Shown here in pieces: positions 4,262 to 6,641 of a stretch of DNA of 64,000 nucleotides. The stretch is from sequence record NC_031103.1. One strand, 5' to 3'. A model generated the notes under the pieces. It ran no database searches. It had not been told where the DNA came from and was given only the letters and a program-made list of their open reading frames with translations. A program made the position numbers and the translations under genes. The DNA is from Escherichia phage vB_EcoM-UFV13. Position 1 is the first letter of the stretch. Each line of letters begins with the position of its first letter.

Positions 4262-4828
4262 TTATTTACCTAGTTTAGTTATTATAGCTTCTGCGGCAGC
4301 TTTTAGCTTAGATGCGGTGTTAATACGATTTTTAATTTCAGTATACGCATCGCCAAGAACATCAAGGCTATCGGAATAAACACTTACACTATTGCGTTCG
4401 CTATTTGAAATAGAACCTTTAGTTTTACGATCAAAATCGGTGTACACGTCTTGAAGATCGCGGGCTGCCTTCTTTGCGTCATCCAATGCATCAAGAGCTT
4501 TATTCAAAGCATTAACGTATTTTTTAGTGTCGAACATATTCTTAGAAATTTTAACAGGTGCACGTTCAGGAGTAGCTAAGGCAGATTTAGGAAGAACCTG
4601 TTTGCCAGATGCCAGTTTCTTAGAAATTTTGAAAAACGCTTTATTGAAATTATTTTCTTGACTCATCGTAAAAGAACTATTATCAATGTTATACATTTCA
4701 ATAGCTTTAGCTTTCCACTTAAGAAAATCGCCACGGTCTTTTGGGTCCAAGTGGAAGAATACTTTAGTAAGATCTGCTTCAGATGGTAATTTTGCTGCTT
4801 CGGTTAAAAATTCGGCGTAGGTTTTCAT
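4262..4828 (-). CDS. Internal-protein-like capsid-packaged protein candidate with N-terminal capsid-targeting sequence
   Basis: 188 aa; N-terminus MKTYAEFLTEA resembles the T4 internal-protein CTS and contains a prohead-protease-type L-x-E site (LTE/A). Confidence 0.7.
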   Translation of the reverse strand: MKTYAEFLTEAAKLPSEADLTKVFFHLDPKDRGDFLKWKAKAIEMYNIDNSSFTMSQENNFNKAFFKISKKLASGKQVLPKSALATPERAPVKISKNMFDTKKYVNALNKALDALDDAKKAARDLQDVYTDFDRKTKGSISNSERNSVSVYSDSLDVLGDAYTEIKNRINTASKLKAAAEAIITKLGK

Positions 4829-4946: not shown

Positions 4947-5420
4947 TTATTTAATTTGCTTAGCAGACCAAATGCGGTCTTTAATAATTTTTTGGATGTC
5001 TTCAACATATTCAAGAGAGTGAACATGTGGGTTATCTTTGAAACTATAAGCACGAGCTAGCTTTTGGCCTTCAGTTTTGATTACTAAAAGCTCTTTAAGG
5101 ATAGCTTCATATTTGGAGATAATTCCTTTAACGATATTTTTCTCTTGTGTGACTTTAGGATCTGCTTTAGGAGCAGGTTTACCTGAAGCCTTTGCAAAAG
5201 CAGCNCCAGTAGCAACTAAACTTTTCCANGCCATACTAACAGCATTCCCCGTAAATCCTTCTGCTTTCATGTCGCGAGCAAATTGGAATCGTGATTCATC
5301 AGAAGCATCTTTATAGGAATATTTACCCGCGGCAATGGCNGCTTTTGCNACAGCTTGAATTTCAGTGCTAGATGCTTCATTTAACACCGCTTCATTTAAA
5401 AATTGAGCATATGATTTCAT
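4947..5420 (-). CDS. Internal-protein-like capsid-packaged protein candidate with CTS; paralogous N-terminus to ORF 4262..4828; contains ambiguous bases
   Basis: 157 aa; N-terminus MKSYAQFLNEA with LNE/A site; n at 5205, 5229, 5340, 5349. Confidence 0.65.
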   Translation of the reverse strand: MKSYAQFLNEAVLNEASSTEIQAXAKXAIAAGKYSYKDASDESRFQFARDMKAEGFTGNAVSMXWKSLVATXAAFAKASGKPAPKADPKVTQEKNIVKGIISKYEAILKELLVIKTEGQKLARAYSFKDNPHVHSLEYVEDIQKIIKDRIWSAKQIK

Positions 5421-5456
5421 CTTATTTCCTGTTTTAATTCGTGGTTTTAATATACT

Positions 5457-5464
5457 TATTTATA
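5457..5464 (-). promoter_or_regulatory. Late promoter box (TATAAATA on minus strand) upstream of ORF 4947..5420
   Basis: plus tatttata at 5457-5464; about 37 nt upstream of the ATG. Confidence 0.55.
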
Positions 5465-5465
5465 C

Positions 5466-5493
5466 TAAAAAGCCCCAACCTTTCGGCTGGGGC
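5466..5493 (-). terminator. Rho-independent terminator at the 3' end of the tRNA transcription unit
   Basis: minus strand AGCCCCAGCCGAAAGGTTGGGGCT followed by TTTTT. Confidence 0.65.
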
Positions 5494-5546
5494 TAAGCCT
5501 TGCGGCAACCTTGTCGGGGTTCCACCTGCTAAGGCAAGTGTTTGTA

Positions 5547-5637
5547 CGAAACGCCGGGATTCGAACCCGGTTATTAAGCAGTTGACGCTACTNAATATTT
5601 TTAAAAGGCCATATCTCGACCATATCCGAACGTTCCG
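5547..5637 (-). ncRNA. tRNA-like structured RNA (possible stable small RNA or pseudo-tRNA)
   Basis: 7-bp acceptor-like stem (CGGAACG/CGTTTCG) and canonical T-arm CCGGG-TTCGAAT-CCCGG but about 91 nt with no clear anticodon arm; contains n at 5593. Confidence 0.3.
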
Positions 5638-5810
5638 TCAAAAACGCTACTCGGCTTACGGCAAAGATATTTCCTCGAATCGATAATTCGGTGCGCCGTT
5701 TCTGCTGTGATGTAAGGGGGCATTAACCGATCGTAAAGATTTGTTAATGCCAGTCCTTACCCAGGGAACATCAGTCCGACGACTTACCGGTAGCGACCCG
5801 GCTTCTTGTT

Positions 5811-5886
5811 TGGTCGAGGCAGTAGGGATCGAACCTACGACCTAGGACTTAGAAGGTCCTTGCTCTTCCTTCTGAGCTATGCCTCG
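5811..5886 (-). tRNA. tRNA-Arg (anticodon UCU)
   Basis: Manual cloverleaf: acceptor CGAGGCA/TGCCTCG, anticodon loop CTTCTAA, T-arm GTAGG-TTCGATC-CCTAC, encoded CCA. Confidence 0.8.
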
Positions 5887-5890
5887 TATT

Positions 5891-5965
5891 TGGCGGACGT
5901 GATAGGATTCGAACCTATAACCAATCGCTTAACAGGCGATCGCTCTGCCATTGAGCTACACATCC
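5891..5965 (-). tRNA. tRNA-Asn (anticodon GUU)
   Basis: Manual cloverleaf: acceptor GGATGTG/CACGTCC, D-stem GCTC/GAGC, anticodon stem ATCGC/GCGAT with loop CTGTTAA, T-arm ATAGG-TTCGAAT-CCTAT, encoded CCA. Confidence 0.7.
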
Positions 5966-5969
5966 AAAT

Positions 5970-6056
5970 TGGTGGGGAGTGATGGAGTCGAACCACCCGA
6001 GTCGCAATGACAATGGATTTACAGTCCACACCGCTACCTCTACGGGATAACTCCCC
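5970..6056 (-). tRNA. tRNA-Tyr (anticodon GUA), class II with long variable arm
   Basis: 87 nt; acceptor GGGGAGT/ACTCCCC, anticodon loop CTGTAAA, variable-arm hairpin, encoded CCA; D-stem imperfect. Confidence 0.6.
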
Positions 6057-6068
6057 TAATTCATAATT

Positions 6069-6143
6069 TGGTGGCCCTGGGTGGAATTGAACCACCATCT
6101 GGCGATTATGAGTCGCTTGCTTGAACCTTCCAGCTACAGGGCC
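6069..6143 (-). tRNA. tRNA with CAU anticodon (Ile lysidine-type, as the T4 tRNA-Ile, or elongator Met)
   Basis: acceptor GGCCCTG/CAGGGCC, anticodon loop CTCATAA, T-arm GGTGG-TTCAATT-CCACC, encoded CCA. Confidence 0.75.
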
Positions 6144-6144
6144 T

Positions 6145-6220
6145 TGGTGCTGATTGACGGAATCGAACCGCCGACCTTCTCATTACAAGTGAGTTGCTCT
6201 ACCTACTGAGCTAAATCAGC
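6145..6220 (-). tRNA. tRNA-Thr (anticodon UGU)
   Basis: acceptor GCTGATT/AATCAGC, D-stem GCTC/GAGC, anticodon loop CTTGTAA, encoded CCA. Confidence 0.8.
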
Positions 6221-6225
6221 AAAAC

Positions 6226-6315
6226 TGGCGGAGGCGATAGGATTTGAACCTATGAGTCGCCGGAGCGACTGCCGGTTTTCAAGACCGGTGCATTAAACCA
6301 CTCTGCCACGCCTCC
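6226..6315 (-). tRNA. tRNA-Ser (anticodon UGA), class II
   Basis: 90 nt; acceptor GGAGGCG/CGCCTCC, anticodon stem CCGGT/ACCGG with loop CTTGAAA, long variable arm, encoded CCA. Confidence 0.8.
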
Positions 6316-6317
6316 AG

Positions 6318-6391
6318 TCTCCATACAAGGATTTGAACCTTGGACCTCCTGATCCCAAATCAGGCGCTCTACCAAACTGAGCTACACGGAG
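6318..6391 (-). tRNA. tRNA-Pro (anticodon UGG)
   Basis: acceptor CTCCGTG/TATGGAG (two G-U pairs), anticodon loop TTTGGGA, T-arm CAAGG-TTCAAAT-CCTTG; CCA not encoded. Confidence 0.75.
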
Positions 6392-6401
6392 TAAATTAAA
6401 T

Positions 6402-6475
<74 letters not shown>

Positions 6476-6480
6476 AAATT

Positions 6481-6567
6481 TGGTGCGAGAAGTGGGACTC
6501 GAACCCACAAGGAAATCATTCCGCAGCATTTTAAGTGCTGTGCCTTTACCAATTTGACCATTCTCGC
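6481..6567 (-). tRNA. tRNA-Leu (anticodon UAA), class II
   Basis: 87 nt; acceptor GCGAGAA/TTCTCGC, anticodon stem CAGCA/TGCTG with loop CTTAAAA, long variable arm, encoded CCA. Confidence 0.8.
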
Positions 6568-6568
6568 G

Positions 6569-6641
6569 CTGGGAATAAAGGACTCGAACCTTTGCATCCT
6601 GGAATCAAAATCCAGTGCCTTACCAACTTGGCTAATTCCCA
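6569..6641 (-). tRNA. tRNA-Gln (anticodon UUG)
   Basis: acceptor TGGGAAT/ATTCCCA, anticodon stem CTGGA/TCCAG with loop TTTTGAT; CCA not encoded. Confidence 0.75.

Follow-up and report, generated by a model that had tools for sequence, protein, structure and literature searches.

Orthologues of the T4 stable RNAs rnaD and rnaC at the end of the tRNA operon of Escherichia phage vB_EcoM-UFV13, and a covariation-supported tRNA-like fold for rnaC

The species 1 and species 2 stable RNAs of bacteriophage T4 have been known since the 1970s. Here we describe a region of Escherichia phage vB_EcoM-UFV13, lying at positions 5500-5810 of a 64,000-nucleotide (nt) stretch of the sequence record NC_031103.1 (the window, to which all positions refer), which on homology and gene order corresponds to the Tequatrovirus (T4-like) orthologues of T4 rnaD and rnaC, both encoded on the minus strand. 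The window can be assigned to a T4-like phage because the BLAST matches of its stretch after tRNA-Arg are nearly all to Tequatrovirus and its relatives. In T4, the species 1 and 2 RNAs are products of the tRNA region for which no function is known (PMC3014915, 2010; PMC9697503, 2022; PMC12685909, 2025); T4 RNAC has been detected by Northern blot, and RNAC and RNAD are both classed as late RNAs (PMC9697503).

The features of the locus are collected in Table 1. By BLAST, the 376 nt that follow tRNA-Arg matched 804 phage records, the best of them at 98.9% identity. Records that carry annotations of rnaD (species II RNA) and rnaC (species I RNA) at this locus are RB33, RB7, T2L, T4 (NC_000866) and X03016, the last being the original record of the T4 tRNA region; the annotated order in these records is tRNA-Arg, rnaD, rnaC, terminator, and the coordinates used here for the two RNAs are annotations carried over through a column-by-column alignment with RB7, RB33 and T2L. 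The rnaC of the window is orthologous to that of T4 (NC_000866 70908-71046; X03016 4741-4877), from which it differs at 2 positions with an equal length of 139 nt, and it takes the same slot, between rnaD and the terminator where the tRNA cluster ends. Together with the trailer that follows it, it is 97-100% identical to hundreds of records, including T4, RB10 and X03016. The rnaD homologue starts one nucleotide past the CCA of tRNA-Arg and contains the same invariant cores as T4 rnaD (NC_000866 71053-71171), to which it is only 87% identical because its hairpin is variable; identity to the rnaD of other Tequatroviruses ranges from 92% up to 100%. The hairpin type is common to the window, T4, RB7 and RB33, and the 3' end of the RNA reads CACCG in the window as against CACCA in T4 and RB7.

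An initial annotation of this DNA had suggested that the interval might hold the equivalent of the two T4 RNAs and had proposed an alignment to T4 rnaC and rnaD as a check; the annotated records, the alignment, which returned orthologous sequences for both RNAs, and the match to the rnaC covariance model described below all bear this suggestion out. Its view that the element is part of the tRNA transcription unit, with tRNA-Arg on one side and the operon terminator on the other, likewise agrees with ARAGORN and with the terminator scan, on the minus strand. As a whole, the region is with high probability explained as two co-transcribed stable non-coding RNAs forming the tail of a ten-tRNA operon that ends at the terminator at 5494-5471.

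Table 1. Features of the rnaD/rnaC locus, in the direction of transcription (nt numbers count from the 5' end of each RNA; MFE, minimum free energy; R1, covariance model of rnaC)
Feature	Position in the window	Strand	Basis or remark
tRNA-Arg (UCU), last of ten tRNA genes	5811-5886	-	ARAGORN; Rfam tRNA 68.1 bits; encoded CCA
Single spacer nucleotide, tRNA-Arg/rnaD	5810	-	Position
rnaD (species 2 RNA) orthologue, 121 nt	5689-5809	-	Alignment to annotated rnaD of RB7, RB33 and T2L
rnaD hairpin 1, GCCGG-GUCGCUA-CCGGU, nt 8-24	5786-5802	-	Predicted; MFE and consensus folds
rnaD invariant core AAGUCGUCGGACUGAUGUUCCCUG, nt 25-48	5762-5785	-	Almost no change among 18 homologues, those of Providencia and Klebsiella phages included
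rnaD hypervariable long hairpin	5709-5762	-	Inverted repeat I1, inner arms 5719-5732 / 5738-5751
rnaD invariant 3' segment AUCACAGCAGAAACGGCGCAC	5691-5710	-	Predicted pairing with GUCGUCG (nt 27-33)
5-nt spacer AAUUA, then U5683	5684-5688	-	Resembles the AAUAAU spacers between tRNA-CCA and rnaC in other genera (upstream flanks of all homologues)
rnaC (species 1 RNA) orthologue, 139 nt	5545-5683	-	Model R1, 155.8 bits, E=4e-41
rnaC acceptor-like stem, 5' strand CGAUUCG, nt 2-8	5676-5682	-	Pairs with 5547-5553
rnaC long arm, nt 9-78, apical loop UUGAC (5641-5637)	5606-5675	-	Covariation
rnaC arm 3, nt 87-112, loop C-GUCAA	5572-5597	-	7 of 9 pairs compensatory
rnaC T-arm CCGGG-UUCGAAU-CCCGG, nt 114-130	5554-5570	-	100% paired
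rnaC acceptor-like stem, 3' strand CGUUUCG, nt 131-137	5547-5553	-	UA tail follows, no CCA
Conserved 50-nt trailer, rnaC to terminator, predicted small hairpins	5495-5544	-	Identical in RB7, RB33 and T2L
Intrinsic terminator of the tRNA/rnaD/rnaC unit, AGCCCCAGCC-GAAA-GGUUGGGGCU and U run	5466-5494 (site 5494-5471)	-	Terminator scan; inverted repeat I2; 'pot. terminator' of X03016

The structure of rnaC was approached through its homologues, which were collected from GenBank phages, IMG/VR and metagenomes (about 50 loci sampled) and which cover Tequatro-, Mosig-, Kanagawa-, Winkler-, Teguna-, Gelderland-, Karam-, Moon- and Marfavirus together with unclassified Straboviridae. A pattern scan of IMG/VR added one locus, and the scan of metagenomes returned the same lineages again. 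In the alignment of 21 distinct sequences, RNAalifold predicted 40 pairs, compensatory changes being seen in 24, and the covariance model R1 was built from this alignment; it gives the homologues 107-159 bits, and its sole cross-match is to a real tRNA-Gln at 21.9 bits. When the rnaC model was applied to 32 distinct sequences, drawn from more than ten phage genera, 93.5% of the cells were paired and 28 of the 46 pairs were compensatory, values that were reached by none of 500 shuffles, with slid controls at 35-50% paired; the covariation among related phages that the initial annotation had asked for is thereby present in rnaC. The 139-nt unit by itself also folds more stably than its shuffles (z=-4.6, 0/200). 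Base 5593, which is nt 91 of rnaC, is N in the window and G in all close relatives.

The covariation-supported fold is a four-way junction composed of an acceptor-like stem, a 70-nt arm, a 26-nt arm 3 and a T-arm. At the third pair of the acceptor-like stem 18 sequences have G-C and 14 have A-U, and the stem's two central U.U mismatches are replaced by U-A and C-G in the Tegunavirus lineage; the middle pair of the T-arm is G-C (16 sequences), U-A (15) or U.G (1). In the long arm, 16 of the 20 pairs of helices 2-6 are compensatory in the 32-sequence alignment, and the three pairs of P2 (helix 2, the base of the arm) never vary. An AAAAAU linker is invariant and single-stranded. Helices 1 and 9 together form a 7-base-pair (bp) acceptor stem that is directly continuous, 3' strand to 3' strand, with a 5-bp T stem carrying a 7-nt T loop. 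By this pattern of covariation, rnaC is a cloverleaf-type tRNA mimic which retains the 12-bp acceptor/T minihelix of tRNA and in which the 70-nt arm and the 26-nt arm replace the D and anticodon domains. Neither an anticodon loop nor an encoded CCA is present, the genomic 3' tail being UACAAA.

A second level of structure is suggested by the two apical loops. The loop of the long arm, UUGAC, is complementary to GUCAA (5586-5582) in the loop of arm 3, which has 6 nt, 5 of them engaged in this pairing. All five pairs of the kissing helix are possible in 32 of the 32 sequences (slid controls, 0-42% paired), and the loops are invariant except for two double changes, namely UUGGC/GCCAA in Marfavirus, by which an A-U pair becomes G-C, and UUGAU/AUCAA in Tegunavirus, by which a C-G pair becomes U-A. 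The alignment is not biased towards the kissing helix, because this helix is absent from model R1. We consider the UUGAC/GUCAA interaction to be probable rather than proven. In Kanagawavirus and Winklervirus a change in the T loop is accompanied by a G-to-C change in UGG, on the 3' side of the internal loop adjacent to P2; a contact of the D-loop/T-loop kind, between the internal-loop G and T-loop position 55 (G.U55 becoming C-G55), is just an idea, suggested by one lineage only.

This fold differs from the one first proposed for the region, where a tRNA-like element of about 91 nt (5547-5637) had been drawn from an acceptor-like stem and a canonical T-arm. The T-arm of that proposal stands, at 5570-5554, as a part of rnaC; the acceptor pairing and the 91-nt fold do not. 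CGGAACG (5637-5631, nt 47-53) and CGUUUCG (5553-5547, nt 131-137) are complementary, yet across the homologues this stem is 83% paired, shows no compensatory change and has one pair broken in 12 of 21 sequences. Its 5' strand sits in another helix in which 5 of 5 pairs covary, while CGUUUCG pairs with the true 5' end of rnaC. The same data bear on the possibility that 5547-5637 is a genuine if unusual tRNA whose variable arm is long or which contains an intron, such as the tRNA-Lys(UUU) labelled in phage G4507. Such a tRNA would account for the CGGAACG/CGUUUCG complementarity next to a canonical T-arm, for a weak tRNA-Sec match at 5546-5638 and for the record MK327946 (G4507), which annotates a 94-nt tRNA-Lys(ttt) homologous to approximately 5545-5638; however, ARAGORN makes no call there, the best Rfam score is 15.9 bits against a gathering score of 47, the required stem behaves as described above, and what would be the anticodon region consists of the AAAAAU linker, invariant and single-stranded, so that we regard this alternative as extremely improbable.

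The searches for known RNA classes agree with this. ARAGORN called no tRNA or tmRNA in 5500-5810. Rfam 15 has no family for rnaC or rnaD; the Rfam search, which had been proposed for the interval, returned no family at the gathering score for either RNA, the 29-bit threshold of the tRNA family RF00005 was not reached, and at E<=10 there were only chance-level matches to tRNA-Sec, isrK and plastid untranslated-region models. Among these, the tRNA-Sec match at 5546-5638 (15.9 bits, E=2.5) is the only one to a tRNA family. For tmRNA, the tmRNA_permuted model scored 10.1 bits against 47. Neither ARAGORN nor Rfam thus recognises rnaC as a tRNA, nor is it a tmRNA. Compared with a canonical tRNA (RF00005), rnaC likewise has a 7-bp acceptor stem and a coaxial T arm, with a 5-bp stem and the 7-nt loop UUCGAAU, and lies in a tRNA array with tRNA-type spacers; it differs in having 139 nt and in having no D arm, no free 7-nt anticodon loop and no encoded 3' CCA.

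A protein-coding function of the region can be weighed on the same alignments. Mechanically called open reading frames (ORFs) exist, one of 81 amino acids (aa) on the plus strand (5441-5686, GTG start) and one of 40 aa on the minus strand (5601-5723), hence the initial statement that the interval has no ORF holds for credible genes and not for mechanical frames; moreover, coding sequence features are found here in many records, where 'hypothetical protein' entries in GenBank lie over rnaC or rnaD. Against coding stands the observation that substitutions obey the RNA pairing, that 1-nt and 2-nt indels occur (lengths 138-142 nt), that the rnaD hairpin has been swapped for unrelated sequences of other lengths and that the RNAs have been directly characterised in T4; the probability that the region encodes a protein is, in our judgement, close to nil. 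In G4507 (MK327946, 473-566 of the fetched locus) the 3' two-thirds of rnaC are labelled as the 94-nt tRNA-Lys(ttt), which is the same false tRNA reading. The comparative results on the two RNAs account for both the 'tRNA-Lys' and the 'hypothetical protein' mis-annotations in GenBank.

From 5' to 3', rnaD is predicted to comprise a single-stranded AAGAA leader, hairpin 1, the core AAGUCGUCGGACUGAUGUUCCCUG, the long hairpin and the 3' segment UCACAGCAGAAACGGCGCAC, and the 121-nt unit folds with z=-2.8. The closing pair of hairpin 1 (8/24) is A-U, G-C or G.U among the homologues, and the rnaD of Marfavirus has GCGAG...CUCGC around a 46-nt insertion at the hairpin 1 position; this insertion was misplaced by MAFFT, and the covariation of hairpin 1 there is a direct reading of the sequence and not a count from the alignment. 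A long imperfect hairpin had already been noticed in the initial annotation; it is present at about 5762-5709 on the minus strand, where it forms the hypervariable arm of rnaD, and its stability exceeds that of nearly all shuffles (z=-4.5, 1/200). The slot of this hairpin is filled by at least four unrelated sequence types (that of the window, T4 and the RB phages, and those of T2, Dhaka/Mosig and Marfa), each of which folds as a hairpin with CUG...CAG as its closing sequence.

Two further observations concern rnaD. A hammerhead ribozyme was considered for the motif CUGAUG...GAAAC and rejected: there is no Rfam hammerhead match at E<=10, and CUGANG is followed by U and not A in all homologues. 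In addition, GAAACGGCG in the rnaD 3' segment (5694-5702) is complementary at 8 of 9 positions to CGGCGUUUC in the 3' strand of rnaC (5548-5556), as inverted repeat I5; this complementarity is probably due to chance, since it is not kept in the Marfavirus pair of RNAs.

Experimental evolution offers a view of the rnaD hairpin under selection. When phage BW-1 was adapted to ECOR34, a host that is semi-permissive, three of three evolved lines fixed one common single-nucleotide polymorphism (SNP) in rnaD, at position 164264, and the overall fold was reported not to be drastically altered (PMC12685909). Position 164264 of OR125554.1 is T on the plus strand and is A76 of a T2-type rnaD; the site lies within CACAG-UUUUA-CUAUG, at the apex of the hairpin, whose equivalent in the window is at about 5730-5745. 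The T-to-C change (A-to-G in the RNA) turns CUAUG into the CUGUG of T2L and G4507, so that a C-G pair stands where there was a C.A mismatch; by prediction the MFE goes from -25.9 to -31.0 kcal/mol, and the long hairpin typical of the family returns. We infer that the SNP lies in the rnaD hairpin, where it brings back a base pair. If the mapping is correct, the integrity of the rnaD hairpin bears on fitness, and does so in a host-dependent manner.

The two RNAs do not always occur together. In Karam-, Gelderland-, Moon-, Kanagawa-, Winkler- and Tegunavirus rnaC is found with no adjacent rnaD, and conversely rnaD is found with no rnaC in Dhakavirus IME08, where the trailer follows it, and in Providencia phage PSTCR6, where tRNA-Ile follows it; in Marfavirus both are present, about 400 nt apart. 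From this distribution, rnaC and rnaD behave as separable modules. Their surroundings are those of tRNA genes: at the Karam-, Gelderland-, Moon-, Kanagawa- and Winklervirus loci examined, the CCA end of a tRNA and an AAUAAU-type spacer lie directly 5' of rnaC, and in Karamvirus fGh-Ecl01, Winklervirus Kc304, Tegunavirus TG1 and Gelderlandvirus the next tRNA begins a few nucleotides 3' of it. T4-type phages have rnaD in the upstream slot, with the end CACC(A/G) followed by AAUUAU. As judged from these loci, both RNAs are arranged exactly as tRNA genes within phage tRNA arrays. Nor is rnaC host-derived: a pattern scan for its core covered 185,579 genomes of bacteria and archaea and gave 0 matches.

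A further conserved piece of the unit is the trailer that separates rnaC from the terminator. Together with the terminator it folds with z=-3.9, and in Dhakavirus IME08, which has no rnaC, it lies directly 3' of rnaD; one of its small hairpins changes there from GCC-GCAA-GGC to ACC-CUA-GGU (approximately 527-600 of the fetched locus). It may act as a processing site or be a piece of a stable 3' fragment.

The structure and the placement of the RNAs suggest how they could be released from the transcript. The tRNA-processing machinery would excise both, and RNase P would cut at the first pair of the rnaC acceptor stem; the geometry of the minihelix fits this enzyme, and X03016 has the 5' end of species 1 precisely at the C of the first acceptor pair. 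The same cut would free the 3' side of rnaD, which exonucleases might then trim to the terminal stem of rnaD, and the compact pseudoknotted fold could give rnaC its stability. Work of the 1980s on a precursor containing species 2 and species 1 reportedly involved RNase P.

A rival explanation is that the modules serve only in cis, rnaC supplying an RNase P site by which the 3' end of the RNA upstream is matured, as with mascRNA and MALAT1, and insulating the tRNAs from the terminator, with no role in trans. This explanation fits several facts: rnaC always lies directly 3' of a tRNA or of rnaD with a tRNA-type spacer, its acceptor/T minihelix has the appropriate geometry, and in PSTCR6, where rnaC is absent, rnaD is followed by tRNA-Ile, which is another RNase P substrate. 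Nevertheless, a minihelix would suffice for this purpose, yet conservation extends to the 70-nt arm, arm 3, the kissing loops and the AAAAAU linker, and ordinary tRNAs supply RNase P sites throughout the array, with rnaC of the non-T4 genera lying between normal tRNAs for which no such aid is required; a role in cis alone is therefore rather unlikely, though it keeps some weight.

The conservation data also bear on the idea that the RNAs are functionless leftovers, that is decayed tRNA genes or spacers which persist as stable by-products of processing. Its attraction is that no function has emerged in 50 years, that the RNAs are dispensable on laboratory hosts and that rnaC is absent in IME08 and PSTCR6 and rnaD in other phages. 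What speaks against it is that the identity of rnaC is 97-99% across hundreds of Tequatro- and Mosigviruses, that 28 of its pairs are held by compensatory changes in distant genera with invariant loops and linkers, which implies purifying selection on the fold, and that a pair-restoring SNP arose convergently in rnaD under host adaptation. We consider it improbable that the RNAs are mere leftovers. The initial mention of a decayed tRNA is accordingly right in so far as rnaC keeps a tRNA-type acceptor/T minihelix, and wrong as regards decay, given the strong structural constraint.

Either RNA, or both, could also act in trans by base pairing on host or phage mRNAs. PMC9697503 speaks of 'small regulatory RNAs'; invariant single-stranded stretches that might serve such pairing are the AAAAAU of rnaC and the 5' leader and core of rnaD. 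Within the 64-kb window, however, there is no complementarity of at least 13 nt, the two 12-mers found are at about chance level and A/U-rich, and the annotated mature 3' ends lie away from the terminator U-tail used by typical Hfq-dependent small RNAs. With the window as the sequence searched for targets, regulation by base pairing appears to us quite unlikely.

Known RNAs that mimic tRNA provide a different frame for rnaC. The mascRNA of MALAT1, the tRNA-like RNAs of murid herpesvirus 68, the tRNA-like domain of tmRNA and the bacterial YrlA RNAs are acceptor/T-arm mimics that tRNA enzymes can read and that do not decode, and in several such RNAs the mimic sets the end of a neighbouring RNA. 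They have no kinship with rnaC in sequence or by covariance model, none of these families appeared in the Rfam scan, and to our knowledge the kissing-loop body of rnaC has no counterpart in the mascRNA, herpesvirus 68, tmRNA or YrlA RNAs. Mature rnaC might be a tRNA decoy that does not decode and that engages a factor able to read the acceptor/T-arm; examples of such a factor would be an enzyme of the host that processes or modifies tRNA, or a defence protein directed at tRNA. For its part, rnaD might have a host-dependent function that needs the integrity of its hairpin; we put this forward as speculation that may well prove wrong. More doubtful again is a stronger version, in which a pseudoknotted rnaC decoy or sponge and an anti-host rnaD, with its hairpin as the determinant of host specificity, would form a joint module for counter-defence and host takeover within the tRNA cluster.

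Several points weigh against the reading of rnaC as a structured, tRNA-processed mimic and of rnaD as its folded partner. The T loop is non-canonical in Kanagawavirus CIP9 and Winklervirus Kc304 (UGCAUGC and UGCAUUC), and strict tRNA mimicry is weakened because of these loops and because no CCA is encoded. The covariation of the kissing loop is confined to two lineages, and cleavage by RNase P is deduced from the structure and the annotated ends. Of the 37 pairs predicted for rnaD, only 3 show covariation in close relatives that have the hairpin type of the window, and the conserved stems never vary; the fold of rnaD is consequently less secure than that of rnaC. Deletions of the tRNA region of T4 are viable on laboratory hosts, which means that any function must be conditional. 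Finally, the function of rnaC and rnaD is given as unknown in PMC3014915, PMC9697503 and PMC12685909.

Upstream of the two RNAs, the tRNA cluster of the window (5811-6641, minus strand) encodes, in the listed order, Gln, Leu, Gly, Pro, Ser, Thr, Met(CAU), Tyr, Asn and Arg, an arrangement shared with RB7. In comparison with T4, the window has ten tRNAs including Tyr, Asn and Met, whereas T4 has the homing-endonuclease gene segB at the place where the window has Tyr and Asn. The CCA is encoded in 8 of the 10 tRNA genes, the exceptions being tRNA-Pro and tRNA-Gln.

Downstream of the tRNA unit lie two tandem paralogous ORFs on the minus strand, one of 188 aa (4262-4828) and one of 157 aa (4947-5420), which belong to PHROG 2280, of unknown function. 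The 157-aa ORF is flanked by near-identical terminators at 5494-5471 and 4939-4916 (AGCCCC...GGUUGGGGCU and a U run), and the 188-aa ORF follows directly after the one at 4939-4916. Many relatives have an ORF cassette between two copies of the terminator, which is seen as two-piece BLAST matches over approximately 770-900 bp. Ambiguous bases occur in the window at 5206, 5230, 5342 and 5350, within the 157-aa ORF, and at 5593, within rnaC, which suggests a stretch of lower assembly quality.

The RNAs themselves are already known, and their identification here is a rediscovery of the species 1 and species 2 RNAs; what may be new is the covariation-backed fold of rnaC with its corrected acceptor stem, the kissing loop, the modular distribution of the two RNAs and the reading of the BW-1 SNP. 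Abundant, stable and conserved, rnaC and rnaD belong to those parts of the T4 genome that have gone longest without an explanation, and the structural model proposed here renders the long-standing question of their function more testable.

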